A model generated the notes under the pieces. That model was not told where the DNA came from. It ran no database searches and saw nothing but the letters and a program-made list of their open reading frames with translations. From contig DASXNK010000159.1 of assembly GCA_036495095.1 (NCBI GenBank), forward strand, positions 10,515-74,514: a stretch of 64,000 nucleotides of DNA. The letters run 5' to 3'. Source of the DNA: Candidatus Dormiibacterota bacterium (GTDB taxonomy: Bacteria; Chloroflexota; Dormibacteria; Aeolococcales; Aeolococcaceae). Within the stretch, counting starts at the first letter, position 1, and each line of letters begins with the position of its first letter. Below, piece after piece: positions 6,378 to 33,148 of the stretch. The translations under genes were made by a program, and so were the position numbers.

Positions 6378-6399
6378 GAGGGTGCCCGGCGGCCATACG

Positions 6400-7218: not shown

Positions 7219-7258
7219 CGGCCCCGGGGCGCGGGCAACATGATATCGGCACTATCAT
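7215..7258 (+). promoter_or_regulatory. candidate promoter/operator upstream of the yihY-like gene
   Basis: TTGACG (7215-7220), 18-nt spacer, CATGAT (7239-7244). Overlapping inverted repeat ATGATA-N7-TATCAT (7240-7258). AT-richer island 34 nt before the ATG at 7292. Confidence 0.3.
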
Positions 7259-7291
7259 AAGTCGAGCCGTGGGGATGGGAACGAGGCCACC

Positions 7292-8251
7292 ATGAAGCGA
7301 CGTCTGCTCAACTCCTTCCCCGTGCGGGTGATCAAGCGCTACCTCGACGCCCAGGGGACGAACTGGGGAACCCTGATCGCCTGGAACGCGCTCTTCGCGT
7401 TCTTCCCGATCGTCCTGGTGACGATCACCGTGCTCGGCCTGCTCCTCCAGGACCAGGGGCTGAAGGACAGCATCGAGCGCCAGATCGCCGCCGGCTTCCC
7501 CAACTGCCGCAACAGCTCGAACTGCGAGATCATCGTCGCCCTCAACTCCTTCAAGGAGAAGACCGGCGTCTTCGCCATCCTCGGCCTCGCCGGCCTCTTC
7601 TGGAGCGGCTCCGCCCTCTTCGGGGCGATGGACCAGGCGCTCTCCAGCCTCTCCGGATGCAAGGCGCGGGACTTCATCCCGCAGAAGCTGATGTCCTTCG
7701 GCATGATCCTGCTGTTCACGGTGCTGACGGTGCCGCTGATCCTCAGCGGCAGCCTGCTCGGGCTGCTCGAGAAGCTGCCCCTGGTGCCGACCGTCTTCCG
7801 GATCGGACCGGTCTCGCTGCTCCTCCAGCTCGGCCTCGGCATCCTCGACGCCACCCTGCTCTTCACGGCGATCTACTACGTCGTCCCCAACCGCCGCCAG
7901 CGGCTCCGCCAGGTGCTTCCCGGCGCGCTGGTGGCGGCGGCTCTCTTCGAAGGCTTCACCCTGGTCTTCCCCCTGTACTTCCGCCTCAGCGGGGGCTTCG
8001 CCGCCTACGGGCAGACCTTCGCGCTGTTCTTCCTGCTGCTCTTCTACTTCTTCGTCCTCGGCCAGATCGTGATGATCGGCGGCGCCGTGAACGCCGAGCG
8101 CGACCCCGACCTGCGCTCCTGCGACAACGGCGCCGGCGAGCCCGCCGGCGGCCTCACCCCGGCGACGATGGCCGGGCGTGACCGCGTCGAGGAGAGCAAC
8201 GGCTCCCCGCCCGTTCCCGTGGGCAGCGGCATCGCCGAGCGCCGGGCCTAG
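7292..8251 (+). CDS. YihY/BrkB (virulence factor BrkB) family membrane protein
   Basis: 319-aa polytopic membrane ORF with family-typical N-terminus (KRYLDAQGTNWGTLIAWNALFAFFPIVL) and AIYYVVPNRRQRLRQVLPGAL motif. Confidence 0.85.
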   Translation: MKRRLLNSFPVRVIKRYLDAQGTNWGTLIAWNALFAFFPIVLVTITVLGLLLQDQGLKDSIERQIAAGFPNCRNSSNCEIIVALNSFKEKTGVFAILGLAGLFWSGSALFGAMDQALSSLSGCKARDFIPQKLMSFGMILLFTVLTVPLILSGSLLGLLEKLPLVPTVFRIGPVSLLLQLGLGILDATLLFTAIYYVVPNRRQRLRQVLPGALVAAALFEGFTLVFPLYFRLSGGFAAYGQTFALFFLLLFYFFVLGQIVMIGGAVNAERDPDLRSCDNGAGEPAGGLTPATMAGRDRVEESNGSPPVPVGSGIAERRA

Positions 8252-8254
8252 CCT

Positions 8255-9466
8255 CTAGCCGGAGGGTGTCAGCGCGGGCCGGTCGACCGCCGCCGCCAGG
8301 GTGAGCAGGCCGAGCACCGCGTCGCGGGGGCTCCCATCCGGCACCGCGTATCGGACCTCGCCTCGGCCCGCCTCGGTGGGCACCACCAGCTGAGCACGCC
8401 AGAGCTGGCCGAGGTGGTAGACGACCTCGGAGACGGGCAGCCCGGTCTCGCGGGCCAGCTCGGCGCTGCTCCGCTCGCCGGCGAGCAGGTGGCGGAGCAG
8501 GCGCAGCCGGCTGACGTCGGCGACCAGGCGCAGCAGGGTGGCGGCGTGGAGCAGGTCGCCGTCCGCGGCGGGAAGGTCGCCGATGGCCGGGGTGGGCGAT
8601 GCCGGCCCGCGGTGGCGGCGGGCGATGTAGGTGGTGCGCAGCAGGGCCTCGCCGGCGGTGGCGCCGGTGCCGCGGCGGGTGATCACCAGGTAGAAGATGC
8701 CGATCCCGGTGGCGACCACGAGGGCGTCCGCCCAGCCCGCGATCAAACCGGCGCCGACCAGGCGGCGGACCAGGGCCACCACCCCCGAGAGCATGCTGGC
8801 GACGAGGCCCAGGTCGACGGCGAGGGCGAGCACCAGCCGCACCCCGTCGGGCATGCGCACCAGGGCGCCGCGGTCGCCCGCCGGCACCCGCCGGATGGCG
8901 ATGAAGCTGCCCAATCCGATGGCGACGAGGATCGCCCCCTGCACCGCCAGCTTCTGCACCTCGCCGAGGAAGTGCTCGACGGGGATGCCGACCACCGCTC
9001 CGAGCACGACGAAGACGCCCACCCAGGCCACCGTCGGGGGCACCACCCCGAGCAGGAAGGTGCGCCGCTCGACCCCGGCGGCGCCGGCGACCAGCGACGT
9101 GTAGATGCGCAGCCCGGGGATGAGGCGGGAGACGGCGATCGCCCTCGGCCCCGCGGAGCGGATCCGCCCCGACACCCGGGCGAGGTTCTCTGCCTGCCGA
9201 AGGCGCCGGGCGAGGGTGGTGAGGCCGTGCTCGCCGACCAGCCGGGCCCAGCTGTAGCCCACCATCGAGCCCGCCAGCGAGGCGGCGATGGCGAGGGGCA
9301 CGAACACCACCGGGTCGAGGCCGCCGGCGGCGATCAGCAGCCCACCGGCCATGAGCACCAGCTCGCCGGGGGCGAAGGGGATGGGGATCCCCGCCTCCTC
9401 CGCGAACAGCAGGCTGCACAGGAGGACGATGGCGACGACACCGTGGAGCCCCTGCAGGTAGCTCAC
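8255..9466 (-). CDS. DedA (SNARE-associated) - RDD - ArsR-type HTH fusion membrane protein
   Basis: From GTG 9466 (VSYLQGLHGVVAIVLLCSLLFAEEAGIPIPFAPGE = DedA N-terminus). Middle RDD-like segment (VRLVLALAVDLGLV...GTGATAGEALLRT). C-terminal ArsR/SmtB HTH (LRLVADVSRLRLLRHLLAGERSSAELARETGLPVSEVVYHLGQL). Confidence 0.8.
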   Translation of the reverse strand: MSYLQGLHGVVAIVLLCSLLFAEEAGIPIPFAPGELVLMAGGLLIAAGGLDPVVFVPLAIAASLAGSMVGYSWARLVGEHGLTTLARRLRQAENLARVSGRIRSAGPRAIAVSRLIPGLRIYTSLVAGAAGVERRTFLLGVVPPTVAWVGVFVVLGAVVGIPVEHFLGEVQKLAVQGAILVAIGLGSFIAIRRVPAGDRGALVRMPDGVRLVLALAVDLGLVASMLSGVVALVRRLVGAGLIAGWADALVVATGIGIFYLVITRRGTGATAGEALLRTTYIARRHRGPASPTPAIGDLPAADGDLLHAATLLRLVADVSRLRLLRHLLAGERSSAELARETGLPVSEVVYHLGQLWRAQLVVPTEAGRGEVRYAVPDGSPRDAVLGLLTLAAAVDRPALTPSG

Positions 9467-9561
9467 GGAGGGCTGCCCGGTGCGTTCACTGCCACCACCA
9501 TACAGCGAAGCCGGCCGCCTCACAGCCGGGGGGGCGATGGCGAGATGTGTTACTGAGACGC

Positions 9562-9579
9562 TATCATGCTTTCTATCAT
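9562..9579. promoter_or_regulatory. direct repeat TATCAT-N6-TATCAT in the divergent DedA-ArsR / csbD intergenic region
   Basis: gcTATCATgctttcTATCATcaagcat. Also inverted repeat ATGCTT-N9-AAGCAT. The only AT-rich patch of the 170-nt intergenic region. Confidence 0.3.
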
Positions 9580-9638
9580 CAAGCATCAGCTCCTGCGGGA
9601 TGCGCACCGCGCCTCGCAGCCAGAGCGGAGGAGATCCC

Positions 9639-9818
9639 ATGGCCGGAGAGATCGACCAGGCGACCGGAAAGGTCAAGGAGGTCGCCGGGCGCGCGACCGG
9701 CGACCCCGACCTCGAGGCCGAGGGCAAGGCCGAGAACGTCAAGGGCCATGTCAAGGATGCCGCGGAGAGCGTCAAGGACGCCGCCAGGAGCATCAAGGAC
9801 AAGCTGACCGGACACTGA
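9639..9818 (+). CDS. CsbD family general stress protein
   Basis: GGAGGAG 5 nt before ATG 9639. MAGEIDQATGKVKEVAGRATGDPDLEAEGKAENVKGHVKDAAESVKDAA is a textbook CsbD repeat pattern (59 aa). Confidence 0.85.
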   Translation: MAGEIDQATGKVKEVAGRATGDPDLEAEGKAENVKGHVKDAAESVKDAARSIKDKLTGH

Positions 9819-9825
9819 CCTGACC

Positions 9826-9860
9826 CGGCGGCGGGCGGCCGGTCCGGCCGCCCCGCCGCG
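9826..9860. terminator. GC-rich hairpin between convergent csbD and Rieske genes
   Basis: cggcggcgggcggcc ggtcc ggccgccccgccgcg: about 11-bp imperfect stem, no U-tract. Position between two convergent stops suggests a bidirectional terminator. Confidence 0.35.
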
Positions 9861-9877
9861 CGATCCCCTGGCGATGG

Positions 9878-10552
9878 CTAGACGACGTGCACCTCGACCT
9901 GGCCATCGCGGATCCGGACGGGAATGCGCGGCAGCGGCCGCAGCGGCTGGGGCTGCTCGTGGTACAGCACCTCGCCACCGAGCCCGAAGGCGGCGCGGTG
10001 GCAGGGGCAGTCGAGCCGGCCGGCGTTCTGGTCGAGCTGCAGGATGCAGCCCAGGTGGGTGCACACCGCCGAGAGCGCGAGAAGGTCGCCGCCGCCGCGG
10101 TGGACCACCACCCCCTCCACCCGGCCGGTGGAGAAGCGCGCCGCCCGGCCCACGGGCAGGGCGTCGAGGGCCACCACGGCGTGCCAGCGGCCGCCGTCGA
10201 CCGCCAGCTCCTCCGGCTCGCCGGGGCTGCCCGGGGGGTGGTCGACGGCGAGCCGGTCGACCACCACGCCGGTGGCCGCCGCCGCCGCCGCCAGGCCCCC
10301 GGCGCGGAGCAGGCCGCGGCGGCTGAGCCGCCCTCCGGCGGGGACATCGCCGCCGGCGTGCTCGCGCAGCCGGGCCTCCAGCCGCTCGACGAAGCGGGGG
10401 TCGGGCAGCCCCGCCTGGGGGCGCGCGGCCGAGAGCTCGATCGCGGCGGCGAGCGCCTCGAGGTCGTCGGCGTCCTGCCGGCCCCGGGGTGGCCGGCGGT
10501 TGCGGAGCAGCGCGTCGACGTAGGCGGCGACGCGCCGGACCCGGCGGCTCAC
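9878..10552 (-). CDS. Rieske [2Fe-2S] domain protein with twin-arginine signal/anchor and an N-terminal cytoplasmic extension (candidate anti-sigma factor)
   Basis: CTHLGC...CPCH Rieske motifs. SRRGLLRAGGLAAAAAATGVVV Tat-type signal. About 70-aa N-terminal domain. 4-nt overlap with the ECF sigma gene upstream. Confidence 0.85.
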   Translation of the reverse strand: MSRRVRRVAAYVDALLRNRRPPRGRQDADDLEALAAAIELSAARPQAGLPDPRFVERLEARLREHAGGDVPAGGRLSRRGLLRAGGLAAAAAATGVVVDRLAVDHPPGSPGEPEELAVDGGRWHAVVALDALPVGRAARFSTGRVEGVVVHRGGGDLLALSAVCTHLGCILQLDQNAGRLDCPCHRAAFGLGGEVLYHEQPQPLRPLPRIPVRIRDGQVEVHVV

Positions 10553-15760: not shown

Positions 15761-18013
15761 GTGGTGAGCCGGTCACGGCTCGCGGCGGGCCGGTGGCGGC
15801 GGGTGAGACTGCCGGTCGTGCGCACCTCTCCACCCGGATGGCGCCGCGGCCGCCGCCTGCTCGCGATCGCGACGGTGCTGGCCGCGATGACCTCCCTCCG
15901 CCCCGACCCCGGGCTCGCCGCCACCGCCCCGGTGGCGCCCGTCGCCGCCGTCCACGGAGGCGCGGTGCTCGACGGCTTCGGCGGCCTGCATCCCTTCGGC
16001 GGGCTCGCCCTGAACACCAGCGGGTCCACCTACTGGAACGGCTGGGACATCGCCCGCTCGCTCGCCCTCCGCGCCGACGGCTCCGGCGGCTGGGTGCTCG
16101 ACGGCTTCGGCGGCATCCATCCCTTCGGCGCCGCCGCCCCGGTGAGCGGCGCCCCCTACTGGTCGGGGTGGGACATCGCCCGGGCCGTGGTGGTCACCTC
16201 CACCGACGCCGCCGGCGTCGCCGACGGCCGCCAGGGCTACGTCCTCGACGGCTTCGGCGGCGTGCACCCCTGGGGCGGCGCCCCGGTCATCGGCGCCCCT
16301 CCGTACACCGCCGGGCAGGACCGGGCCCGTGGCCTGGAGATCCACCACGACGCCCTCGGCGTGCCCGACGGCGGCTGGGTGCTCGACGCCGCCGGCACCG
16401 TCCACGCCTTCGGGGCGGCGCCGCCGCCCGCCGCCGCACCCTCGCCCGCGGCGCCGGTGTGGCAGGCGCTCCACGCCAGCGGCGCGGCCCTGTACGCGGT
16501 GCCCCGCTGGGGGGTGGTGAGCACCCTTGGACCCGGCATCTCGCCCTTCTGGGACGGCTACGCCGACTGGGGGTCGTGGGACATCCTCCGCGACCTCGTG
16601 CTGGTCGGCGCCCCCAACCCGCTGACCGTCGCCCAGCCGGTGAGCAGCGCCGCGAGCGCCACCCTGGGCTGGGCGAGCCGGTCCCACGGCGGCGCGACCC
16701 TGGACGGCTACGGCGGCCTGCATCCCTTCGGCGGGCTCCCCCTCGACACCACCGGCGCCCCGTACTGGCGGGGCTGGGACATCGCCCGCTCGCTGGCGCT
16801 GCGCGACGACGGCTCCGGGGGCTGGGTGCTCGACGGCTACGGCGGCGTCCACGCGTTCGGGCGCGCCGGCCCGGTGAGCGCCCCCGCCTACTGGGGCGGG
16901 TGGGACATCGCCCGCGCCCTGGTGGTCACCTCGCGCGGCGCCGACGGCCTCGCCGACGGCCGCCAGGGGTACGTGCTCGACGGCTACGGCGGCCTCCACC
17001 CCTGGGGCGGCGCGCCGAACCTGACCTCGTCCGTCTACTGGAGCGGCTGGGACGTCGCCCGCGGCCTCGAGATCCACCTCGACGCCGGCGGCCGGCCCGA
17101 CGGCGGCTGGGTGCTCGACGCCTTCGGCGGCATCCATCCCTTCGGCGCCGCCCCGGCGCTGGCCTCACCCGCCGACTACCTGTCCGGCCGCGACCTCGCC
17201 CTGAAGCTGCACCTCGCCGGCGGCACCGCCTACGTGGTGCGGCGCTTCGGCGGCATCAGCGCCCCCGCGTCGCTGGCCCCGAGCTGGGGGGGCTACACCG
17301 ACTGGGGGGCGTGGGACATCCTCCGCGACACCGTGCTCATCAACCCCGGAGACCCGCGGCCGGTGCCGCAGCCGGTCAGCCCGGCGGCGGCGGTCGCCTA
17401 CCGCACCCAGGCCGACCGGTACACGATGTGGGTCCCGGCGGTGCAGCAGGCCTACGCCCTCGACTGCGAGGCCGCCGCCCTGACCGCCGCGCTCGCCGCC
17501 CGCGGCGTCACCGTGACCCAGGAGTGGGTGCTCGCCCAGATCGGCGCCGACTCCCGCCAGCCCCAGCTCGACGCCAGCCGCCGCATCCTCCGCTGGGGCA
17601 ACCCGAACCTCACCTTCGTCGGCGACGTCAACGGCTCCGAGCCCCGCGACACCGGCTACGGCGTCTACCAGGCGCCGATCGCCGCCGCCGCCCGCGCCGC
17701 GGGCCGCCCCGCCATCGGGGCCCGCGGCTGGGACCCCTGGGCGCTGCTCGACGAGGTCGCCAGGGGCCACCCGGCGGTGATCTGGGTGGACACCACCTTC
17801 ACCCCGGTGACGATGCACCAGTGGACCGCCTGGGACGGCAGCACCGTCGACTACTCGATCGGCGAGCACGCCGTGACCGTCGTCGGGGTCGACGCCGTGG
17901 CCGGGACCATGACCCTGCTGGATGTTGCGCACGCCCAGCTGCGGACGTTCACCATCGCGCAGTTCGTCGGGTTCTTCGCGAGCTTCGGGAACATGGCGGT
18001 GGTGGTGAGCTGA
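15761..18013 (+). CDS. secreted protein: eight LDG(F/Y)GG(L/I/V)HPFG-type repeats in two duplicated modules plus C-terminal peptidase C39-like domain
   Basis: 750-aa ORF. Signal/anchor RRLLAIATVLAAM. Repeats counted by eye. C-terminus QQAYALDCEAAALTAALAARG...GEHAVTVVG resembles papain-like C39-type peptidase domains. Confidence 0.8.
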   Translation: MVSRSRLAAGRWRRVRLPVVRTSPPGWRRGRRLLAIATVLAAMTSLRPDPGLAATAPVAPVAAVHGGAVLDGFGGLHPFGGLALNTSGSTYWNGWDIARSLALRADGSGGWVLDGFGGIHPFGAAAPVSGAPYWSGWDIARAVVVTSTDAAGVADGRQGYVLDGFGGVHPWGGAPVIGAPPYTAGQDRARGLEIHHDALGVPDGGWVLDAAGTVHAFGAAPPPAAAPSPAAPVWQALHASGAALYAVPRWGVVSTLGPGISPFWDGYADWGSWDILRDLVLVGAPNPLTVAQPVSSAASATLGWASRSHGGATLDGYGGLHPFGGLPLDTTGAPYWRGWDIARSLALRDDGSGGWVLDGYGGVHAFGRAGPVSAPAYWGGWDIARALVVTSRGADGLADGRQGYVLDGYGGLHPWGGAPNLTSSVYWSGWDVARGLEIHLDAGGRPDGGWVLDAFGGIHPFGAAPALASPADYLSGRDLALKLHLAGGTAYVVRRFGGISAPASLAPSWGGYTDWGAWDILRDTVLINPGDPRPVPQPVSPAAAVAYRTQADRYTMWVPAVQQAYALDCEAAALTAALAARGVTVTQEWVLAQIGADSRQPQLDASRRILRWGNPNLTFVGDVNGSEPRDTGYGVYQAPIAAAARAAGRPAIGARGWDPWALLDEVARGHPAVIWVDTTFTPVTMHQWTAWDGSTVDYSIGEHAVTVVGVDAVAGTMTLLDVAHAQLRTFTIAQFVGFFASFGNMAVVVS
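15950..17390 (+). repeat. internal tandem duplication (two modules of about 240 aa) inside the repeat protein
   Basis: Module 1 (aa 64-307) and module 2 (aa 308-543) align colinearly: HGGAVLDGFGGLHPFGGLALNTSGSTYWNGWDIARSLALRADGSGGWVLDGFGG vs HGGATLDGYGGLHPFGGLPLDTTGAPYWRGWDIARSLALRDDGSGGWVLDGYGG, and so on. Confidence 0.75.
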
Positions 18014-18033
18014 CCCCGGCGATGACGCCGCCG

Positions 18034-18570
18034 CTACCGGCGCAGCGCCGCCAGCACCTCGTCGGCCACGGCGACCGCCAGCTCGCGCATCTCGTCGTCG
18101 GTGCGGTCCTGGATGGGATGGGGGACGAAGACCCGGCGGATCGCCGGCTGGCCGAGGTTCCGGGCCTCGGCGTCGGCGACCTCGCGGAAGACGCTGGAGG
18201 CCACCAGCACCGCGGGCCGGCCCAGCCCCTCGAAGGAGACCACGTCGTGCAGACCGCACGACACGCACGAGCCTCAATCGGCGAGGGCTTCGACCAGCGC
18301 GTCGCAGCGCTCGGCGATCTCGCGGCGGAGGTCGGCGGGCGCGGGGCGGGTGAAGGTGGGCTTGGCGGTGCGCTCCACCAGGAAGCCGCGATCGCTCAGC
18401 AGCCGCTCGAGCTCGTCGAGGAAGACGTCGCCGCGCGGCTTGCGGATGTCGAGCAGCGCGATCCGCAGCCCGGGGGCACCGTCGATCGGCGCCGCCAGGG
18501 GACGGTCGCCGCTCTCGCGCTCGGCGGTGGGGTCGAGCAGCTCCAGGCCGCCGCCGGAGGTCAGGTCCAT
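18034..18570 (-). CDS. UGSC-motif selenoprotein (in-frame TGA at 18274-18276 read as selenocysteine)
   Basis: ORFs 18274..18951 (3' part from ATG 18570) and 18034..18264 share one frame and are separated only by TGA. Read-through gives ...CDALVEALAD-U-GSCVSCGLHDVV... (178 aa). A SECIS-like hairpin follows. The ATG overlaps the upstream gene's stop (ATGGACCTGA). Confidence 0.8.
18241..18265 (-). promoter_or_regulatory. SECIS-like stem-loop downstream of the in-frame UGA
   Basis: mRNA CGUGUCGUGC-GGUCU-GCACGACGUG: 10-bp stem (8 Watson-Crick plus 2 G-U) with loop GGUCU. The 7-bp perfect upper stem starts exactly 11 nt after the UGA, as in the E. coli fdhF SECIS, whose apical loop is also GGUC-type. 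Confidence 0.7.
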
Positions 18571-20090
18571 GGCTCCACGCTCCTCGTCACCGGGGTCGAG
18601 CCGATCTCGCCCGACGCCCACATCCCGTACACCATGCTGAAGAGGCCGGCGCTGCCGCCGGCGTGGACCAGTCCGATCCGGTCGGGGCCGGCGAACTTGG
18701 TGATGGGGCCGTCGGGGTTGCCCCCGAAGACGGCGGGGTCGAGGCCCTCGGGCGACCCGCCGGCACCGCGGAGCATGTCGCCGATCCGCGAGGTGGTGCG
18801 GCGCATCAGCTCCTCGCGGGTCCGGGCCCGGTCCCAGCCGGCCTCGCGCAGGATGCGCCCGTGCTCCGGCCCGATCACCAGCAGCGCGTCCCAGATGAAC
18901 AGCTGCTTGGGGTGGGCCACCGATTGCAGCGCGAGGGCGAGGCTGGCGCACAGGCCCTCGGGGTCACGGGCGATCTGGTCGAGGATCAGCCGGGGCGCCT
19001 CGGCGGCGTAGAGGGTCACCGTGGTCTCGCCGGCGTCGAAGCCGCGGTCGGCGGACAGGGGCTCCCAGGGCGAGCCCTCCTGCAGCTCGGCGAAGCAGGC
19101 GCCGACCTTGCCCGGCTGGCCGTGGGCGGAGCGGTCCTCGAGCTGGGGGCGGCCGCCGCCGATGTTGCGCACCACCAGCTGGAGGCTCCTGCCGATGCCG
19201 AGGTTGGCCCGGTTGCCCTGACCCAGGCAGTTGCCCCGGGCGTTCATCCCCACCCGCTCGGTGAGCGGACCGCTGGCCACCACCAGCGGCCCCGCCGGAT
19301 GGGTGGTGGCGAGCAGCCCGTGCATGCTGAAGCGCTCCTCGCAGGCGGCGTCGACGGCGGCGAGGACGAAGGGCAGATGCTCGGGCCGGCAGCCGGCCAT
19401 CACCGCGTTGACCGCCACCTTCTCGACGGTGGCGGTGCCGCCGTAGGGGGGCACCACCCCGACCACGTCCTGGGGGTCGCGACGGGTGCCCTCGAGCATC
19501 GCGACCACCCGCTCGGGGGTGGGCGGCACCACCGGCAGCCCATCGGTGACGCCGCGCTCGAACAGGGCCTCGTGGGGGTCCTCGTGGGCGCCGATGATCA
19601 GCGACCGCGAGCGCAGCCGGCCCTCGGCCCTGGCCGCGCGCACCGCGAGGGCGGCGGCGATCCGCGGGTCGCGGGTGCGGCTGGCGCAGCCGGGGCGATG
19701 GGCGGGGAGGCCGTCGAGGTGGAGCGCGAACCCCGCCTCGGCGGCGAGCCCGGCGATGCGGTCTCGGGCCAGGCCCTCGACCCGCCCGTGCTCCTCGCCG
19801 CCGTCGAGCAGCAGCACCGTGGGCACCGCGTCGGGGTCGAAGCGGGCGCTCAGCTCCAACCCCTCGTCGAGCTCCACGGGGGAGACGAGCCGGAGCCGCT
19901 CCCACAGTGCCGCGGTGTCGCCGCCGTCCGACTGCGAGACGATGCGCAGGGGGGCGCCGTCCGCCGCCGCCGCGTCGAGGGCGGGGAGCAGCTCGACGCA
20001 CACCGGGCAGTCGTGCTTGATGATGGCGACCAGCTCTCGGGCCACCCGAGGATTATGGTCCCGACGCCTAGCGGAGCAGCGTTCCCGCAT
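18561..20090 (-). CDS. thioredoxin-fold (CPVC) domain fused to a large domain of unknown function
   Basis: 509-aa ORF. N-terminus LVAIIKHDCPVCVELLPALD...VPTVLLLDGGEE is thioredoxin-like. The rest (TDGLPVVPPTPERV, VEKVAVNAVMAGCRPEHLP, NARGNCLGQGNRANLGIGRS) I cannot name. GTG 20045 is an alternative start downstream of the SDR stop. Confidence 0.8.
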   Translation of the reverse strand: MRERCSARRRDHNPRVARELVAIIKHDCPVCVELLPALDAAAADGAPLRIVSQSDGGDTAALWERLRLVSPVELDEGLELSARFDPDAVPTVLLLDGGEEHGRVEGLARDRIAGLAAEAGFALHLDGLPAHRPGCASRTRDPRIAAALAVRAARAEGRLRSRSLIIGAHEDPHEALFERGVTDGLPVVPPTPERVVAMLEGTRRDPQDVVGVVPPYGGTATVEKVAVNAVMAGCRPEHLPFVLAAVDAACEERFSMHGLLATTHPAGPLVVASGPLTERVGMNARGNCLGQGNRANLGIGRSLQLVVRNIGGGRPQLEDRSAHGQPGKVGACFAELQEGSPWEPLSADRGFDAGETTVTLYAAEAPRLILDQIARDPEGLCASLALALQSVAHPKQLFIWDALLVIGPEHGRILREAGWDRARTREELMRRTTSRIGDMLRGAGGSPEGLDPAVFGGNPDGPITKFAGPDRIGLVHAGGSAGLFSMVYGMWASGEIGSTPVTRSVEPWT

Positions 20091-20874
20091 CGACGGGCAG
20101 CACCGCGCCGGTGACGTGGCGGGCGGCGTCGGAGCAGAGCCAGACCACCGCGGCGCTGACGTCCTCGGGCTCGACCAGGTCGACGGGGAGGGCGGCGGTC
20201 AGGCTGTGGGCGAGGTGGGGATCGGCCTCCATCACCCCCTGCATCTGCGGATTCGTGCCCATGGGCGTGCGCACGCCGCCGGGGGCGACGCAGTTCACCC
20301 GGATGCGATGGGCCGCCAGCTCGAGGGCCAGCGACCGGGCCAGCCCGATGCAGCCGTGCTTGGCGGCCGCGTAGTGCGCCATCCCGCTCAGCCCCTTGAG
20401 CGCCGCCGTCGAGGTGGCGATCACGATGGCGCCGCCCTCGCCGCCGGCGAGCATCGCCGGCACCGCCGCCCGGCAGGTCCGCCACACCCCGGTGAGGTTG
20501 ACCCCGACCACCTCGTCCCACTGCGCGTCGCTCAGCTCCCAGGCGGCGCCGTAGCTGATCACCCCGGCGTTGGCGACCACGGTGTCGAGCCGGCCGAGGC
20601 GTGCGACGGCGCGCTCGACCAGCTCCGCCAGGGCGGCGCCGTCGCGGACGTCCAGCACCGCGGAGACGCAGCGGCGCCCCTCCGCCTCCACCAGCAGCGC
20701 CGTCCCGGCGAGCTCCTCGGCGGTGCCCAGCGGGTAGGGGACGGTGGCGAGCGGCGCGGCCAGGTCGCACACCGCGACGTCGGCGCCGGCGCGGGCGAGA
20801 GCGACCGCGTGGGAGCGCCCCTGGCCCCGGGCGGCGCCGGTCACCAGAGCGACCCTGCCCTCCAGCATGCTCAC
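20068..20874 (-). CDS. SDR family oxidoreductase, mycofactocin-coupled subtype
   Basis: [26 protein letters not shown], insertion [12 protein letters not shown], catalytic YAAAKHG. This motif set is what I recall for TIGR03971-type mycofactocin-coupled SDRs, and mftABC lie 11 kb away. Confidence 0.9.
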
Positions 20875-20921: not shown

Positions 20922-22562
20922 ATGCCCGCGCCCTCGTATGTCCACGGAGCTCACCCGGTGCCGCTGCTGGGGGAGACGATCGGCGAGAACCTGCGCCGCA
21001 CCGTGCAGCGGTTCGCCGACCGTGAGGCGCTGGTGGTGCGCGAGCAGGGCTACCGGGCCACCTACGGCGAGCTCTGGGAGCAGGTGGGCGAGGCCGCCCG
21101 TGGGCTGATGGCCCGCGGGGTGGGCCGCGGCGACCGGGTCGGCATCTGGTCGCCCAACCGCAGCGAGTGGGTGGTGGTCCAGTACGCCACCGCGCGGATC
21201 GGCGCCATCCTCGTGAACATCAACCCCGCCTACCGCACCGCCGAGCTCGAGTACGCGCTCAACCAGTCCGGGGTGAGCTTCCTGATCCTCGCCCGCGCCT
21301 TCCGCCAGGCCGACTACGCGGGCATGCTCGGCCAGGTCCGCGGCAGCTGCCCGGAGCTGCGCGAGGCGCTGGTGCTCGAGGACGGCTGGGAGGCGCTGCT
21401 CCGCGACTCGGACCGGGTCTCCGAGGCGCGGCTGGCCGAGCGCGAGGCGGGGCTGCAGTTCGACGACCCCATCAACATCCAGTACACGTCGGGCACCACC
21501 GGTTTCCCCAAGGGCGCGACCCTGTCGCACCACAGCATCCTCAACAACGGCTTCTTCATCGGCGAGGCGCTGCGCTACACCGAGGCCGACCGGGTCTGCA
21601 TCCCGGTGCCCTTCTACCACTGCTTCGGCATGGTGCTCGGCAACCTGGCCTGCACCACCCACGGCAGCACCATGGTGATCCCCGGCGAGGCCTACGACCC
21701 GGTGGCGGTGATGGAGACGGTCCAGGCGGAGCGCTGCACCTCGCTCTACGGGGTGCCGACGATGTTCATCGGCGAGCTCGACCACCCCCGCTTCTCCGAG
21801 TTCGACTTCTCCTCGCTGCGCACCGGGATCATGGCCGGCTCGCCCTGCCCCGTCGAGGTGATGAAGCGGGTGCAGTCGACGATGTCCATGACCGAGGTCA
21901 CGATCGCCTACGGGATGACCGAGACCTCGCCGGTCTCCACCCAGAGCGCCACCGACGACCCGCTGGAGAAGCGGGTCTCCACGGTCGGCCGGATCCACCC
22001 CCACGTCGAGATCAAGGTGGTCGACCCCGAGACCGGCGCGGTCGTGCCCCGGGGCGAGCGCGGCGAGCTCTGCACCCGCGGCTACAACGTGATGCTCGGC
22101 TACTGGAACAACGAGGAGGCCACCCGGGCGGCGATCGACGCCGGCCGCTGGATGCACACCGGCGACCTGGCGGTGATGGACGACGACGGCTACCTGAACA
22201 TCGTCGGCCGGATCAAGGACATGATCATCCGGGGCGGCGAGAACATCTATCCGCGGGAGATCGAGGAGTTCCTCTACGGCCATCCCGACGTCGCCGACGT
22301 CCAGGTGATCGGCGTCCCCAGCGAGCGGTACGGCGAGGAGGTGATGGCCTGGGTGAAGCTGCGCGAGGGCGCGGCGATCACCGGCGATCAGCTCACCGAG
22401 CACTGCCGCGGGAAGATCGCCGGCTTCAAGATCCCCCGCTACTGGAAGTTCGTCGACGAGTTCCCGATGACCGTCACCGGCAAGATCCAGAAGTTCCGGA
22501 TGCGCGAGGCCGCGGTCGAGGAGCTGGGGCTGGAGGCGGCGGCGGGGGTGCGCACCGCGTGA
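20922..22562 (+). CDS. AMP-binding acyl-CoA synthetase (fatty-acid--CoA ligase)
   Basis: GAGAGGAGGA before ATG 20922. [53 protein letters not shown] motifs. Confidence 0.9.
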
Positions 22563-24553
22563 CCGCCACCGGCGGGGGCCCCGTGGCGCCGCCGTCGGTC
22601 ACCCCGGACCTCGGCCCGCTCCTCGAGCCGCTGCGCCTCGGTGGCCACACCGCGCCCTCGCGGGTGGCCTTCACCGCGCACACCACCAACCTCGCCGAGG
22701 GCGGGCTGCCCGGGCCGGGCCACGCCGCGTACTACGCGCGCCGGGCCCGGGGCGGCGCCGGGCTGATCGTCGCCGAGGAGGTGTGCGTCCACCCCAGCGA
22801 CCACCCCCTCGATCGCTCGATGCGCGGCCACGACCCGGCGATCGTGCCCGCCTACGCGGCGCTCGCCGCGGTGGTGCGCCCCCACGGGTCGTTGCTCTGC
22901 GTGCAGCTCAACCACAGCGGCATGCAGGGCTCGGGGCATCCGCGACGGCAGGCGGTGTGGGCGCCGTCGGCGGTGCCCAACCCCTCCACGATGGAGATGC
23001 CCAAGGTGATGGAGGCGGAGGACATCGCCGCCCTCGTCGAGGGCTTCGCCGGGTGCGCCCGGCTGGCGATGGCCGGCGGGCTCCACGGGGTGGAGGTCAA
23101 CGCGGGCCAGCACTCGCTGCTCCGCCAGTTCCTCTCGCCCCTCACCAACCAGCGCGGCGATGGCTACGGCGGCGGTCTGGAGGGCAGGGCGCGGCTGCTC
23201 CGCGAGGTGCTCGCGGCGGTGCGCGACGCCGTCGGGCCGGCCGGGCTGGTGGGCCTGCGCCTCTGCGCCGACGAGTTCGCCCCCTGGGCGGGGATCACCC
23301 CCGATCAGGCCCCGGAGATCGCCGCCCACCTGCTCGCCCCCGGCGGCGTCGACTGGGTGAGCGTGGTGGTCGGCTCGATCTACAGCATCCATGCCACCCG
23401 GGCGGCGATGCACACCCCGCCCGGCTACGCCCTCGACGTGGCCCGGGCGGTCCGGGCGGTGGCCGGGGGGGTGCCCGTGCTCGCCACCGGCAGCCTGGTC
23501 GACCCCGCCCCCGCGGCCGCCGCGATCGCCTCCGGGGCGGCCGACGGAGTGGAGATGACCAGGGCGCTGATCGCCGATCCCGACCTCGTCGCCCGGGTCC
23601 GCGAGGGCGGTGCCGGCCGGGTGCGTCCCTGTATCCGCTGCAACCAGGACTGCGTGGTCCGCACCGCCCAGAACGCGGTGGTGAGCTGCATCCACAACCC
23701 CGAGGCGGGCCACGAGGCCGCGTTCCCCGCGCCCGCCCCGGCGGCCCACCCCCGCCGGGTGCTGGTGGTCGGCGGCGGACCCGCCGGGATGGAGGCGGCC
23801 CGGCTGGCGGCGCTCCGCGGCCACCGGGTCACCCTGCTGGAGCGCTCCCCGCGGCTCGGCGGCACCCCCGCCCTGGTCGCCACCGCGCCGCTGCGGGCCC
23901 CGATGGCCGAGGTCGCCGCCTGGCTCGCCGCCCGGCTCGACGAGCTCGGCGTCGAGATGCGGCTCGGGGTCGAGGCCACCGTCGAGGGCGTGCTCGACGC
24001 CGGCGCCGCCGTGGTGGTGCTCGCCACCGGCGGGCGGATGCGCCCCGTCGAGGGCCCCGAGGCGGCCGCCGGCGCCGTGGTGGGGGTGCGCGACGTGCTC
24101 CGTGGCAGGCTCCCGGGCAGCGGCCGGGTGGCGGTCATCGACCGCGAGGGCGGCCAGCCCGCGATCGACGCCGCCGAGGCCGCCGCCGCCGCCGGGCGGC
24201 CCGTGGTGATCGTCAGCGAGGACGCCTTCGTCTCCAGCCGGCTCGGGCTCACCGGCGAGTTCGCCCCCTGGTACCGCCGCGCCGCCGCCCTCGGCATCGA
24301 GCTGATCCCCCAGTCGGTGGTGGTGGCCGCCGCCCCCGGAGAGCTGACCCTGCGGCACCGCTTCGGCGACGGGACCCGCCGGCTGGAGGGCGTCGGCGCG
24401 GTGGTGGTCGCCGACCACGAGCTCGCCGACGACGCCCTCCACCGCGGGCTCAGCGGCCGGGTCGCCGAGCTGCACCGCGCCGGCGACTGCATCGCCCCCC
24501 GCCGCGTCCTCCACGCGGTCCTCGAGGGCAACCGGGTCGGCCGCGCGGTCTGA
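22559..24553 (+). CDS. FadH/OYE-family oxidoreductase (old-yellow-enzyme TIM barrel plus FAD/NAD(P) domain), mycofactocin-system type, copy 1
   Basis: GTG 22559 overlaps the ligase stop (GTGA). [69 protein letters not shown]. Same architecture as 2,4-dienoyl-CoA reductase. Confidence 0.9.
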
Positions 24554-24743
24554 CAGTCGGGGCGGCCCCCTCGCTTGGAATCCCAAGCAGGATGCTGCCC
24601 ACGCTGCATAGGGCAGCTGCACACTCCTTCCGAAGCTGGAGGAGGAGGTCTGCCAGTCCCCTGCCCATGGCTCGGGCAGTCGCCTGCGAAGGCTCGGCCC
24701 AGCGCATGCTGCCCAGGACTGTGGGCGCCCAGCCTGGGGATGA

Positions 24744-24799
24744 GTGGAAAAACCTGTGGAATCAGTGGGTTACTGCAGTCCGGAGTCGTGGATTTCCAC
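24744..24799 (+). repeat. cluster of GTGG(A/G)(A/T)(A/T)-type boxes in the lower-GC spacer upstream of the ParB-like gene
   Basis: GTGGAAAAAC (24744), TGTGGAATC (24755), GTGGGTTAC (24765), GTGGATTTCCAC (24788; arms GTGGA/TCCAC). GTGG starts are 12, 9 and 23 nt apart. Confidence 0.4.
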
Positions 24800-24867
24800 G
24801 ATCCGGGGGGCGATGATGGAAGCGGCGGCGAAGGGCGGTGAAGGGCGTGTGAGGGGGAAGGGTTCCG

Positions 24868-25362
24868 GTGGATGAGCAGAGTCGGTCCACGGAAAGGGTC
24901 GAGGAGCTGGAGGTCGACGCCGTCCACGACCGCCGCTGGCGGCCGGGCGCCGGCGTCGCCGATCCCGGTTATGCGGCGCTGCGGCACAGCATCGCGGAGC
25001 TGGGGCTGATCCGCCCGCTGCTGGTGCGGCCCCGCCCCGAGGGCGGCTACGAGCTGGTCCGGGGCGCGCGGCGGCTGCGGGCGATCCGCGAGCTCGGCGG
25101 CGGCACGGTGATGGCGGTGGTCCGCGAGCTCGGCGACCGCGAGGCGCTGGTCGGCGGCGCCTGGCCGGCGCTGATGCGCTCGGGGTGCAGCGAGGACGAG
25201 GCCGCCGAGCTCCGCGAGCAGCTGGTCGCCGCCGGCAGCTCCGCCTCGGAGGCGGTGGCGCTCACCGCGGTGCTGGGCTTCGACCCCGCCCCCGCGGAGG
25301 CGGCGGCGGTGGTGCTGCAGGGGCGGCCGGCGTGGGCCTGGAGCCCCGCCGCGAGCGCATAG
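24868..25362 (+). CDS. ParB-like N-terminal (ParB/Srx fold) domain protein
   Basis: ELGLIRPLLVRPRPEGGYELVRGARRLRAIRELG is the ParB N-terminal box (GxxRxxA). 164 aa with genome-typical G/C third positions. Confidence 0.7.
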   Translation: MDEQSRSTERVEELEVDAVHDRRWRPGAGVADPGYAALRHSIAELGLIRPLLVRPRPEGGYELVRGARRLRAIRELGGGTVMAVVRELGDREALVGGAWPALMRSGCSEDEAAELREQLVAAGSSASEAVALTAVLGFDPAPAEAAAVVLQGRPAWAWSPAASA

Positions 25363-25414
25363 TCCATAGTCCTCGCCGGCGGCGTCAGCATCAGGGTCAG
25401 GCGGAGGGCGAGGC

Positions 25415-27379
25415 ATCCGGCACCCCCAGTTCCCCTACCTCTTCTCGCCGCTGCGCCTCGGCTCCACGGTGGTGCCCAACCGGATCGTCTTCAGCGCCCA
25501 CCTGACCAACCTCGCCGAGGCCAACCGGGTGGGCCCGCGCCTGATCGCCTACTACGAGGAGCGAGCCGCCGGCGGGGTGGGGCTGATCATCACCGAGGAG
25601 CAGTCGGTGCACCCCACCGACCACCCCTACGAGCGGCTGATCAAGGCGTTCGACGAGCGGGTCGTCGACGGCTACCGGCGGCTGACCGCCGCCGTCCACC
25701 GCCACGGCGTCCCGGTGCTCGCCCAGATCAACCACAACGGTGGCCAGGCGGCCTCGACCTACACCCGGCTGCCCCTCTGGGCGCCGTCCCCGATCGCAGA
25801 CCCGCTCTTCCGCGAGGTGCCGATGGAGATGGGCGGCGCGGAGATCGACGAGGTGGTGCGCAGCTACGCCCGGGTGGCGGTGCACTGCCGGGAGGGCGGC
25901 TTCGATGGGGTCGAGCTCCAGGCCTCGCACAGCTCGATGCTCCGCCAGTTCCTGTCGCCCGCCTCCAACCGCCGCGACGACGCCTACGGGGGCACCACCG
26001 AGCGGCGGGCCCGGCTGGTCCGCGAGATCCTCGAGGCGATCCGCGCCGCGGTGGGCCGTGACTGGACCGTGGGGGTGCGCATCCCCGCCGACGAGTTCGT
26101 CGACGGGGGCATGACCCTGACCCACGCGCTCGCGACCGCCCGGCTGCTCGACGCCGACGGGCTCGTCGACTACTTCAACACCTCGATCGGCACCGCCACC
26201 CACTCCCTCTTCATGGTCGAGGGGTCGATGCACGTGCCCCCCGGCTACCAGCTCTTCGCCTCGGCGGCGCTGCGCGAGGTCACCGACCTGCCCGTGGTCG
26301 GGGTGGGACGGATCAAGGACCCGGTCCAGGCCGAGCAGGCGCTCGCCGCCGGCGCCTGCGACCTGGTGGGGATGGTGCGCCAGCAGATCGCCGACCCCGA
26401 GACCGCGCTGAAGGCCCGCGAGGGACGGGTGGAGGAGATCCGCCTCTGCATCTCGTGCAACCAGGAGTGCATCGGTCGCGAGGGGCTCAACCTCGACCTC
26501 GGCTGCATCGAGAACCCCGCCACCGGCCACGAGCAGACCCTCTCCCCGACCCGGCTCGGCCGGACCGCGCGGCCCCGGCGGGTGCTGGTGGTCGGAGGCG
26601 GGCCGGCGGGGATGGAGTGCGCCGCGGTCGCCGCCCGGCGCGGCCACCGGGTCACCCTCTGCGAGCGCGAGGACGAGCTCGGCGGCCAGGTGCGCCTGGC
26701 GGTGCGGGTGCCCAACCGCTCCGAGTTCGGCGACCTCACCCGGAACCTGGCCACCGCCCTGCGTCACAGCGGCGCCGAGGTGCGCACCGGCACCACCGTC
26801 AGCGTCGAGGAGGTCGCCGCCGGCGGCTGGGACGCGGTGGTGTGCTGCACCGGGTCGGTGCCCGCGCCGCCGCGCTTCGCAGGCGCCGGCGATGCCTCGC
26901 TGCTCAGCGTCCGGGCGGTGATGGAGGGCGCCGAGGTGGGCGAGCGGGTGGCGGTGCTCGACATGGTCGGCTTCCACCAGGCCACCAGCACCGTCGAGCT
27001 GCTCGCCGAGCGCGGCGCCCGGGTCGAGGTGTTCACCACCTCGCTCACCGTGGGCCAGGACCTCGGGCTCACCCTCGACTGGGAGAACTGGCACCGCCGG
27101 GTGCTCGCCCGCGGGGTGACCCTGACCACCAGCGTCGCCCCGCTCGGCATCGAGGGCGGGACGCTGAGCGCGGTCCACGCCTACTCCGGCGAGATGCTCT
27201 CCTTCGGCCCGTTCGACAGCGTGGTGGTCGCCGACCACGGCCGCGCCGACGACGACCTCTACCACGCGCTGCGGGTGGCGGCGGCGGCGCCGGAGGTGCT
27301 CCGCGCCGGTGACTGCGTCGCCCCGCGCCGGGCGGGCAACGCCATCGTCGAGGGCCACCGGGTGGCGCGGGCGCTGTGA
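25415..27379 (+). CDS. FadH/OYE-family oxidoreductase, mycofactocin-system type, copy 2
   Basis: ORF 25469..27379: [46 protein letters not shown]. The conserved N-terminus (FPYLFSPLRLGST) lies in frame upstream of the first canonical start. GGAGGG sits 6 nt before in-frame ATC 25415, so a tentative ATC start is used (minimal call is 25469). Confidence 0.9.
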   Translation: MRHPQFPYLFSPLRLGSTVVPNRIVFSAHLTNLAEANRVGPRLIAYYEERAAGGVGLIITEEQSVHPTDHPYERLIKAFDERVVDGYRRLTAAVHRHGVPVLAQINHNGGQAASTYTRLPLWAPSPIADPLFREVPMEMGGAEIDEVVRSYARVAVHCREGGFDGVELQASHSSMLRQFLSPASNRRDDAYGGTTERRARLVREILEAIRAAVGRDWTVGVRIPADEFVDGGMTLTHALATARLLDADGLVDYFNTSIGTATHSLFMVEGSMHVPPGYQLFASAALREVTDLPVVGVGRIKDPVQAEQALAAGACDLVGMVRQQIADPETALKAREGRVEEIRLCISCNQECIGREGLNLDLGCIENPATGHEQTLSPTRLGRTARPRRVLVVGGGPAGMECAAVAARRGHRVTLCEREDELGGQVRLAVRVPNRSEFGDLTRNLATALRHSGAEVRTGTTVSVEEVAAGGWDAVVCCTGSVPAPPRFAGAGDASLLSVRAVMEGAEVGERVAVLDMVGFHQATSTVELLAERGARVEVFTTSLTVGQDLGLTLDWENWHRRVLARGVTLTTSVAPLGIEGGTLSAVHAYSGEMLSFGPFDSVVVADHGRADDDLYHALRVAAAAPEVLRAGDCVAPRRAGNAIVEGHRVARAL

Positions 27380-28377
27380 CGCGCGGGGGAGACGCCGTCT
27401 GGGTCTGGGCCGAGCACCGCGACGGCGAGCTGAGCGAGGCGACCTGGGAGGTGCTCGCCGAGGGCCGCGAGCTCGCCGCCGCCCTCGGCGGGGCGCTCGT
27501 CATCGCCGGCGCCGGCCTGCCCGAGCCGCTGCCGCTGGCCGCCCTCGGCGGCGCCGGGGTGGCCCGGGTGCACCTCGCCGGGGCGCCGCCGCCCGGCGCC
27601 GAGGCCGGGGCGGGTGCCGCCGTCCTCGCCGCCCTCGCCGCCGCCGAGGGCGCACCGGCGGCGCTGCTGGTGCCGGCGACCGGCTCGGGCTCGGCGCTGG
27701 CGTCGCGGGCGGCGATCCGCCTCGGCGCCGCCTGCCTCGACGACTGCCTCGGCGTGACCGCCGCCGGCGGCGGCCTGCGGGGGCTGCGCTGGGCCTGCGA
27801 CGACCGCCTCCACGAGGAGTGGCTGGTCACCGGGCGGCCGCTGGTGGCGACGCTGCGCCCGCAGACCCGGGGCCGTCCCGACCCCGCCGGCGGGCCCGAG
27901 CCGGAGCTGATTCGCCACCCCGCCGCCGAGCTGCCGCCGCGGGTGCGCCATCTCGGCGAGCTGCCCGGCGACCCCGGCACCGTCCCGCTCGCCGAGGCCG
28001 CCCGGATCGTCGCCGCCGGCCTCGGCGCCGGCGGCCGGGACGCGCTGGCGGCGGTGGAGGAGCTGGCCCGGCTGCTCGGCGCCTCGGTCGGCGCCACCCG
28101 ACCGCTCGCCGACCGCGGCTGGGTGCCCTTCGAGCGGCAGATCGGCACCACCGGGCAGGTGGTGAGCCCCCGCCTCTATCTCGCCCTCGGCATCTCGGGC
28201 GCCCTCCAGCACCTCTCCGGCATCATCGGCGCCGAGACCATGGTGGCGGTGAACATCGACCGCAGCTGCCCGATGATGGCCCGGGCCACCCTCGCCGTCG
28301 CGGGCGACGTGGCCGAGGTCCTCCCCCTGCTGCTCGCCCGGCTGCGCGAGCGCGCCGGCGCCGGGGCGGCCTCGTGA
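27376..28377 (+). CDS. etfA: electron transfer flavoprotein alpha subunit (FixB-like)
   Basis: C-terminal FAD-binding signature GASVGATRPLADRGWVPFERQIGTTGQVVSPRLYLALGISGALQHLSG. GTGA overlap with the preceding gene. Confidence 0.9.
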   Translation: MTRGGDAVWVWAEHRDGELSEATWEVLAEGRELAAALGGALVIAGAGLPEPLPLAALGGAGVARVHLAGAPPPGAEAGAGAAVLAALAAAEGAPAALLVPATGSGSALASRAAIRLGAACLDDCLGVTAAGGGLRGLRWACDDRLHEEWLVTGRPLVATLRPQTRGRPDPAGGPEPELIRHPAAELPPRVRHLGELPGDPGTVPLAEAARIVAAGLGAGGRDALAAVEELARLLGASVGATRPLADRGWVPFERQIGTTGQVVSPRLYLALGISGALQHLSGIIGAETMVAVNIDRSCPMMARATLAVAGDVAEVLPLLLARLRERAGAGAAS

Positions 28378-29687
28378 CCACCGGCTTCGACGCCGTCGTC
28401 GCCGGCGCCGGCCCCGCCGGCAGCGCCGCCGCCCTCGCCCTCGCCCGGGCGGGGCGCAGCGTGCTGCTGCTCGAGCGCGGCGAGTTCCCGGGCAGCAAGA
28501 ACGTCTCCGGCGCCGCGGTCTACAGCCCCGACGTGCTCGAGGCGCTGGTGCCCCGCTTCTGGGAGTCCGCCCCGGTCGAGCGCGTCCTCACCCGCCGGGT
28601 GATCTGCGTCACCTCCGAGGAGTCGTCGGTGGCCCTCGACTTCAGCAGCCGGCGCTTCGCCAGCCCGCCGTACAACGCCTTCAGCGTGCTCCGGCCCCGC
28701 TTCGACCGCTGGCTCGCCGACCAGGCGGTGGCGGCGGGCGCGGTGCTGCTCTGCTCCACCGTCGCCGACGAGGTGCTCCGCGACGGCGCCGGGCGGGTGC
28801 GCGGGGTGCGGGTGCGGCGCGAGGGTGGCGAGATCGCGGCGCCGGTGGTGATCGCCGCCGACGGGGTCAACTCCTTCCTCGCCCGGGGCGCCGGGCTGCA
28901 GCGCGAGCTCACCGGACACGACCTCTCCCTGGGGGTGAAGGAGGTGATCGCCCTCGACCGCCACACCCTCGAGGAGCGCTTCCAGCTGGAGGGCGACCAG
29001 GGCGTCACCTACGAGTTCCTCGGCTCGGTGACCGGCGGCGTGGCGGGGGGGAGCTTCCTCTACACCAACCGCGAGTCGCTCTCGCTGGGGGTGATCGTGG
29101 AGATCGCCTCGCTCGCCGAGCACCGGGTGCGCCCCCACGAGCTGCTGGAGCGGTTCAGGGCCCATCCCACGGTGGCCCCGCTGGTGCGCGGCGGCCGGCT
29201 GGTGGAGTACTCGGCGCACATGGTCCCGGAGGCGGGGCAGCGGATGCTCGCCACCCTCGCCGGCGACGGCATCCTGGTCGCCGGCGACGCCGCCGGGCTC
29301 TGCTTCGCCACCGGCCTGTACCTCGAGGGGATCAACTACGCGATCGCCTCCGGCCGGGCCGCGGGCGAGGCCGCCGCCGATGCGCTCGCCGCCGGCGACA
29401 CCTCCGCGGCCGGGCTGGCCGGCTACCGGCGCCGGCTGGAGGAGCGCGGCGTGCTCCCCGACTTCCGTCGCTTCCGGCTCGCCCCCCGCTTCGTGATGGG
29501 TGAGCGGATCCACGGCCTCTACCCCGGGATCGTCACCGGGATCGCCGAGCGGGTGCTGCGCTCCGAGGGCGGCCGCCCCAAGCAGAAGCTGCTCCCCGCG
29601 GTGACCGGCGAGCTGCGCCGCGCCGGGGTGCCGCTGCGCCGGGTGCTGCGCGACCTCTGGGAGGGGGGACGGGCCTTCGGATGGTGA
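28374..29687 (+). CDS. fixC: FAD-dependent ETF-quinone-type oxidoreductase FixC
   Basis: GTG 28374 overlaps the etfA stop. FDAVVAGAGPAGSAAALALARAG, IAADGVNSFLAR, LVAGDAAG. Whole-length FixC-like (437 aa). Confidence 0.9.
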   Translation: MTTGFDAVVAGAGPAGSAAALALARAGRSVLLLERGEFPGSKNVSGAAVYSPDVLEALVPRFWESAPVERVLTRRVICVTSEESSVALDFSSRRFASPPYNAFSVLRPRFDRWLADQAVAAGAVLLCSTVADEVLRDGAGRVRGVRVRREGGEIAAPVVIAADGVNSFLARGAGLQRELTGHDLSLGVKEVIALDRHTLEERFQLEGDQGVTYEFLGSVTGGVAGGSFLYTNRESLSLGVIVEIASLAEHRVRPHELLERFRAHPTVAPLVRGGRLVEYSAHMVPEAGQRMLATLAGDGILVAGDAAGLCFATGLYLEGINYAIASGRAAGEAAADALAAGDTSAAGLAGYRRRLEERGVLPDFRRFRLAPRFVMGERIHGLYPGIVTGIAERVLRSEGGRPKQKLLPAVTGELRRAGVPLRRVLRDLWEGGRAFGW

Positions 29688-29965: not shown

Positions 29966-29969
29966 GCGG

Positions 29970-33145: not shown

Positions 33146-33148
33146 CCC

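Follow-up and report, generated by a model that had tools for sequence, protein, structure and literature searches.

A UGSC-family gene interrupted by a conserved in-frame TGA very probably encodes a selenoprotein

The UGSC family was first described from aquatic metagenomes, as the 'UGSC-containing protein' of Zhang and Gladyshev (PMC1976440, 2007; PMC2398784, 2008). The Hyphomonas neptunium protein ABI76733.1 is one example of it. In the Global Ocean Sampling (GOS) data, the form containing selenocysteine (Sec) outnumbers the form containing cysteine by 255 to 21 (PMC2398784). By 2016 the family had been counted in 26 organisms (PMC5029168), and it appears in reviews of 2022 and 2026. A thioredoxin-like (Trx-like) fold was suggested for the protein in 2008, and its fusion to a domain called 'Unknown_1' was reported in the same year (PMC2398784). 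A second described system that bears on the present one is selenoprotein B of glycine reductase and D-proline reductase (GrdB/PrdB), which carries a UxxCxxC motif (PMC13188914).

A gene of the UGSC family lies on the minus strand of the DNA analysed here, a stretch of 64 kb that we refer to as the window. The gene occupies positions 18034..18570, running from an ATG at 18570-18568 to a TAG at 18036-18034. Translation of 18570..18034 gives 179 codons with a single internal stop, the TGA at 18276-18274, located in the peptide ...AERCDALVEALAD*GSCVSCGLHDVVSFEG.... An earlier note on this DNA had read two minus-strand open reading frames, 18274..18951 and 18034..18264, as one common frame split only by this TGA. 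The coordinates are correct, and translation from the ATG at 18570 yields the joined protein of 178 amino acids that the note had proposed. With the TGA read as selenocysteine, Sec would be residue 99, followed by cysteines at positions 102 and 105. The context is EALAD-U-GSCVSC, and the motif reads U-G-S-C-V-S-C. We conclude that the internal TGA is very probably a real selenocysteine codon, and assign a probability of about 0.9 to the reading in which the two called fragments are one UGSC-family selenoprotein gene.

The joined 178-aa protein was compared with family models after replacing the stop with Cys. It matches the NCBIfam model NF041046 ("UGSC family (seleno)protein") with 140.6 bits against a cut-off of 125, over profile positions 2-147 of 147, and the Pfam model PF24696 ('UGSC') with 141.1 bits against a cut-off of 25, over positions 1-170 of 172. 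Since both profiles are covered end to end, the match spans the TGA; the relationship to the NCBIfam UGSC model across this codon, which the earlier note had proposed to check, is found above the curated cut-off. The protein shares the U-G-S-C motif and the full profile length with the described family, and the Sec form predominates among its relatives as it does in the literature. There is no essential difference, the window member being of soil type and of very high G+C (75% in the window). The gene is an ordinary member of an already catalogued selenoprotein family and not a new one; the description as a 'hidden' selenoprotein does not stand as a claim of novelty, because curated models and a literature for the family exist. 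Its closest relatives are found in Solirubrobacterales and in metagenome-assembled genomes (MAGs) labelled as Dormibacterota. A literature search for the use of Sec in Conexibacter or Solirubrobacterales returned nothing relevant.

The gene is split by gene callers, as had been anticipated: the same locus in an independent contig of the same species (L084), which has the identical TGA, is called as fragments of 98 and 76 aa. An exact-protein look-up of the 98-aa fragment gave a contig of 3.9 kb as its sole source. In a search of 5.8 billion proteins, most homologues are fragments of 97-102 aa that all end in ...EALAD and are therefore cut at the TGA. Taken at face value, the two reported fragments would mean that the TGA is a genuine stop, and that the locus is either a pseudogene with a nonsense mutation or a pair of small genes of 98 and 76 aa. 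TGA is also the usual stop codon here, being the commonest ordinary stop in the window and terminating 41 of the 60 predicted genes, a usage that excludes a genome-wide reassignment of TGA. Furthermore, the Sec machinery is not seen within the 64-kb window. Against a genuine stop stand the relatives. A scan of one genome per GTDB species returned at least 595 loci, of which the best 80 were fetched. The homologous codon, in the column of the U of U-G-S-C, is TGA in all 80 of these best loci, and each continues into a conserved open frame; homologues that truly terminate at this position, which the earlier note had named as a refuting case, are not found among them. The 80 loci, which span Actinomycetota and several other phyla, come from Solirubrobacterales, Dormibacterota-labelled MAGs, Acidimicrobiia, Pseudonocardia and Chloroflexota, and further from Alpha- and Gammaproteobacteria, Myxococcota, Acidobacteria and Thermodesulfobacteriota.

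In the 80 sequences that are uncut by a contig end, a set that includes the window and leaves out the cut L003, the frame past the TGA is open for another 78-89 codons. When both strands are scanned, the codon proves to be the sole TGA in the 64 kb with an open frame and coding-type GC1/GC2/GC3 over 180 nt on each side. The pN/pS ratio is 0.60 after the TGA and 0.47 before it, both values being below 1, and the measure is a weak one at 97% GC3. The occurrence of one and the same TGA in 80 independent genomes from several phyla, the constant length of the downstream frame and the curated profiles that span both halves all speak against a genuine stop. So do the constrained synonymous sites of the hairpin described below, which a pseudogene would not maintain. 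We consider this explanation highly unlikely, and a Sec codon within one continuous gene is the reading that we follow.

A few homologues carry another codon at the Sec position. The alignment with Cys-containing forms that the note had suggested places TGT at this position in L081 and TGC in L082. At the DNA level, the full-length entry P0003 has TGT together with an intact hairpin, and the full-length entry P0054 has TGC and a loop that now reads ACGCU, from which the GU is gone. In L082, a true Cys form, the loop GU is lost and six of the seven stem pairs can still form. A real GGA occupies the position in L083 (P0020), where the neighbouring partner gene is also split in two in that assembly; this could be an assembly error or a decaying locus. 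The 'W' listed at the Sec position of L085 (P0022) is a TGA that the source had translated with a different genetic code. Single-base variants in single metagenome contigs, such as the TGT of L081 and the GGA of L083, give some substance to the idea that an assembly or sequencing error produced the TGA of the window from a TGC. The identical TGA in the independent contig L084 and in 80 other genomes reduces the probability of such an error to a practically negligible level.

One further observation concerns the codon context. The Asp directly before the UGA (18277-18279, minus strand; alignment A2, column 9) is encoded by GAT in 60 of 81 sequences, window included, and GAT accounts for only 6% of the Asp codons in the window. 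The GAT directly 5' of the UGA may be a context preference of the Sec codon.

Downstream of the TGA, within the coding sequence, the minus strand contains a candidate SECIS hairpin at 18241..18265, identified by folding, RNAalifold, pair counts and frozen synonymous sites. The RNA from 18265 to 18241 reads CGUGUCGUGC-GGUCU-GCACGACGUG. Its upper stem consists of seven Watson-Crick pairs between 18262-18256 and 18250-18244, and the spacer between the UGA and this stem is exactly 11 nt (18273-18263). The perfect 7-bp stem at this spacing had been described in the earlier note, and all of its coordinates are correct. The loop GGUCU spans 18255-18251 with its GU at 18254-18253, and three weaker lower pairs (C-G, G-U and U-G) lengthen the hairpin to 18265/18241. 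The folding energy of the 25-mer is -12.0 kcal/mol (ViennaRNA). Perfect 7-bp hairpins start at 0.18% of window positions, and 5 of the 952 TGA triplets in the window have such a hairpin 10-12 nt downstream. From the window sequence alone, the site is weakly above chance. Judged by the comparative data described below, it is far beyond chance.

An ungapped alignment of 80 distinct sequences retains the upper helix, at which RNAalifold also arrives independently. The majority of stem pairs never vary; they are fixed by conserved amino acids (S-C...H-D) as well and carry no information either way. The core of the upper stem contains one covarying pair and no broken pair. The covarying pair joins columns 27 and 39, both of which are third-codon positions, and is found as GC in 61 sequences, GU in 10, CG in 8 and AU in 1, with no unpaired combination. 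The swap to CG is confined to one subgroup of Solirubrobacterales and the swap to AU to L047, so double changes occur at one pair only and represent about two independent events. The loop is (A/G)GU(G/C/U)U in all 80 aligned sequences, and UGUAC in L085.

It could be argued that the hairpin has no function in the RNA and exists only because the peptide CxSCG/S-L/V-H-D is conserved. Of the ten proposed pairs, six are either invariant or absent only from non-pairing lineages, most of the stem is still possible in the Cys form L082, and the z-score of the fold is unremarkable: the 71-nt region folds no better than its dinucleotide shuffles (z = +0.53). The choice of synonymous codons argues against this idea, as third-codon positions are invariant inside the helix and the same amino acids have mixed codons outside it. 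Within the stem, all 81 sequences use TGC for Cys, whereas for the Cys outside it, two codons upstream, 63 have TGC and 18 have TGT. Likewise, all 81 use GAC for the Asp within the stem, and for the Asp outside it, just before the TGA, 60 have GAT and 21 have GAC. The codon closing the loop has a final G in all 81 sequences. The loop codon, which supplies the GU, is always GGT or AGT, and GGT represents only 4.2% of the Gly codons in the window genes. Together with the sole variable pair, which always compensates, and the origin of the loop GU from a rare codon, these patterns make a mere by-product of the peptide very unlikely. The codon and pair comparisons show that the hairpin is constrained at the RNA level.

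The best described element with which the hairpin can be compared is the SECIS of E. coli fdhF, in which G23 and U24, which contact SelB, and U17 are important. The fdhF element used here is present under fdhF with a 100% match in 5419 of 5426 E. coli genomes. The likeness of the loop to that of fdhF, pointed out in the earlier note, extends to sequence and register: GGUCUGCAC is found at +19..+27 after the UGA in both elements, the spacer is 11 nt in both, and the G and U of the loop are positions 23 and 24 when counting starts at the U of UGA. The elements differ in the size of the loop, which has 5 nt in the window and 6 nt in fdhF, and in the upper stem. The window hairpin forms a continuous helix of 7 perfect pairs without a bulged U17, whereas the fdhF stem has 5 pairs with a bulge. 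A search of the window with Rfam at the gathering threshold gave neither a SECIS match nor any other credible one, and a search of 17900-18700 at E<=10 likewise gave no SECIS family and no credible hit; the check with covariance models that the note had recommended for the hairpin returned no Rfam SECIS match.

The gene directly upstream of UGSC is conserved with it. This partner gene (18561..20045, minus strand; 494 aa) starts with a GTG at 20045, and an alternative ATG upstream at 20090 would give 509 aa; an exact-protein look-up gave no record of the 509-aa form. In 79 of 80 loci the partner gene immediately precedes UGSC, and no other conserved neighbour of UGSC was found. Its stop codon at 18563-18561 overlaps the start region of UGSC by 10 nt, and because of this overlap UGSC is probably translationally coupled to the partner gene. 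The partner protein is composed of an N-terminal thioredoxin-fold domain with a CPVC motif and a domain of ~380 aa. Source records label it 'thioredoxin family protein', 'TlpA family' or 'hypothetical', and Pfam and NCBIfam searches of the protein gave no match, also at permissive thresholds. Among 78 orthologues, the cysteines at positions 13, 16, 120, 219, 235 and 317 are conserved, as are the motifs DGLPVVPPT, NAVMAGC, GQGNRAN and HGQxGK.

The AlphaFold model of the partner (pLDDT 85.7) matches solved structures only over its first ~110 residues, which are of the ResA/TlpA/StoA type. All top 50 matches of the structure search are to the thioredoxin-fold domain, with no solved relative of the large domain among them, and a sequence search of solved structures found only thioredoxins, at the N-terminus. 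The large domain (18561-19700 in the window, minus strand) is widespread in sequence databases. A search with its ~380 residues alone, covering 1.84 billion cluster representatives, returned 5154 clusters (50% identity) at E<=1e-3 and 1157 at E<=1e-30. The relatives include stand-alone proteins of ~350 aa, others with N-terminal extensions, and proteins of ~715-740 aa in which two or three stretches match the domain. In ten relatives that were scanned, the domain itself has no Pfam match. The extensions among these ten comprise AhpC/Redoxin in two cases and a complete UGSC domain in two cases. The latter are P0355 (PF24696, 138.5 bits) and P0392, which unite UGSC and the partner domain in one polypeptide. 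These fusions suggest that the ~380-aa domain is probably the 'Unknown_1' reported in 2008. Together with the synteny and the overlap of start and stop, they also point to UGSC and the partner domain acting together.

We searched the window for the machinery of Sec insertion. ARAGORN found no tRNA gene in the 64 kb, hence no selC, and SelA, SelB and SelD were not found in the window by Pfam searches of the 30 largest ORFs or by tblastn with the SelA, SelB and SelD of L032. In other genomes the partner-UGSC pair is located next to this machinery. Of the 60 loci scanned, 9 have a tRNA-Sec gene just upstream of the pair. In L032 the gene order (4389-10507) is selD, selA, selB, selC, partner, UGSC. 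The genes selA and selB also adjoin the pair in L026, L040, L047, L054, L065 and L070, and selD does so in L026, L047, L065 and L070. The loci with the pair beside sel genes belong to several Acidimicrobiia and Ilumatobacteraceae MAGs, where the pair immediately follows selA, selB and selC. In these carriers, the Sec machinery may have the pair as a main client.

None of 20 Solirubrobacterales-type loci has sel genes next to the pair. This would fit a scenario in which the sel genes have been lost and the UGA is read through without Sec, for example as Cys or Trp by near-cognate decoding. The hairpins of this clade argue against such decoding, as they keep the GU loop, from the rare GGT codon, and show a clade-specific compensatory swap from TCG/CGC to TCC/CGG; both features indicate ongoing selection for recognition by SelB. 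Moreover, lineages that abandon Sec normally fix TGC or TGT, as L082 did. Read-through of this kind is therefore very unlikely, and decoding as selenocysteine remains the preferred reading. By analogy with known bacterial Sec insertion, SelB would deliver Sec-tRNA(Sec) to the UGA, residue 99 would become selenocysteine, and the ribosome would go on for 79 more codons. The conserved codon and hairpin suggest both that Sec is incorporated at this residue and that the process in the window's genome depends on SelB.

We built an AlphaFold model of UGSC on the Cys-form homologue P0003 (pLDDT 89.6). The model is a parallel sandwich with a five-fold beta-alpha repeat (beta-alpha x5) and resembles flavodoxin. 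The Sec position is located where strand 3 ends and helix 3 starts, with cysteines at +3 and +6. Such a placement is typical of a redox-active selenol/thiol pair, and the model predicts the active site at this position. Among solved structures, the model comes closest to flavodoxins, lumazine synthases and B12-binding domains, at TM-scores of 0.34-0.52 only, and a sequence search of solved structures with UGSC found nothing. No thioredoxin is present among the top 50 solved matches; together with the flavodoxin-like model, this leaves a thioredoxin fold of UGSC unsupported. UGSC shares with the thioredoxin-fold selenoproteins (Trx-, Prx- and SelW-like) a small size, a redox-type character and a U/CxxC motif at the start of a helix. 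The difference is that the thioredoxin fold here belongs to the partner protein and not to UGSC.

The resemblance to GrdB/PrdB is of a different kind. UGSC has the same U-x-x-C-x-x-C spacing, in which a hydrophobic strand is followed by U and then by a helix, and in both systems a partner protein is encoded alongside. The Pfam GRDB model gave no match to UGSC at E<=10. An hhalign comparison with a thin, GrdB-like profile of four GOS sequences lines up the motifs with a probability of 0.06%, which is not significant. Homology to GrdB/PrdB is unsupported by these comparisons, and we regard the resemblance as a lead only.

The motifs, the predicted fold and the synteny suggest a redox role for UGSC. 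UGSC and its partner could form one thiol/selenol redox relay or reductase, in which UGSC would be the selenium-containing component and the CxxC and conserved cysteines of the partner would act with the UGSC selenol. More specifically, and as a tentative idea that we hold with considerable doubt, UGSC might be the selenium-bearing subunit of a widespread two-component redox enzyme, sometimes fused, with the ~350-380-aa domain of the partner as its catalytic part.

The wider surroundings of the pair in the window form a mycofactocin island (20068-20874, minus; 22583-27379, plus; 31768-33307, minus; 35287-36405, minus). It contains mftA (33149-33307), mftB (32879-33148) and mftC (31768-32889), all on the minus strand, as well as two FadH/OYE-type mycofactocin-system oxidoreductases and an NDMA-dependent alcohol dehydrogenase. 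A mycofactocin-coupled SDR lies 23 nt upstream of the partner gene. Its position next to the UGSC pair is specific to the window's species, and the adjacency is not conserved in other genomes. Genes for ETF alpha, an ETF-QO-like flavoprotein, a FixX-like ferredoxin and ETF beta follow in a row at 27376-30836 (plus strand), and an acyl-CoA ligase (20958-22562) adjoins this row. On the other side of UGSC, a plus-strand gene at 15965-18013 is convergent with it and ends 21 nt from its stop. The product is a protein of 680-750 aa with about eight GWVLDG(F/Y)GG(L/I/V)HPFG repeats and a C-terminal C39-like peptidase domain, for which NCBIfam gave no match. Further away, at 51712-55835 (minus strand), are Tad/Flp-type pilus assembly genes, which encode a T2SSF-like membrane protein, a T2SSE ATPase and a CpaE/ParA-like protein.

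For annotation, our results mean that the locus should be recorded as one CDS for a 178-aa selenoprotein with a translation exception for Sec, not as two hypothetical fragments. Most database copies of the UGSC family are truncated fragments of the same kind. In aquatic metagenomes, UGSC ranks among the most abundant selenoprotein families, and the present scan finds it in at least 595 species genomes; its cultured carriers include two Pseudonocardia strains, P. yuanmonensis JCM 18055 (L048) and Pseudonocardia sp. RS010 (L051), and Hyphomonas neptunium. Towards the family's function, the analysis contributes a partner gene that is almost always present and sometimes fused to UGSC, the sel-operon neighbourhood of the pair in some lineages, and a predicted fold at odds with the earlier 'Trx-like' suggestion. 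Of the by-products of the work, the most interesting is the partner domain, for which no family model exists. If the two-component enzyme exists, the combination of UxxCxxC and a flavodoxin-like fold would suggest a substrate reductase comparable to GrdB/PrdB and not a generic thioredoxin-like antioxidant. In that case, the pair, which in some Acidimicrobiia is located within the selD-selA-selB-selC cluster, may be the main reason why these aerobic bacteria retain the Sec machinery.
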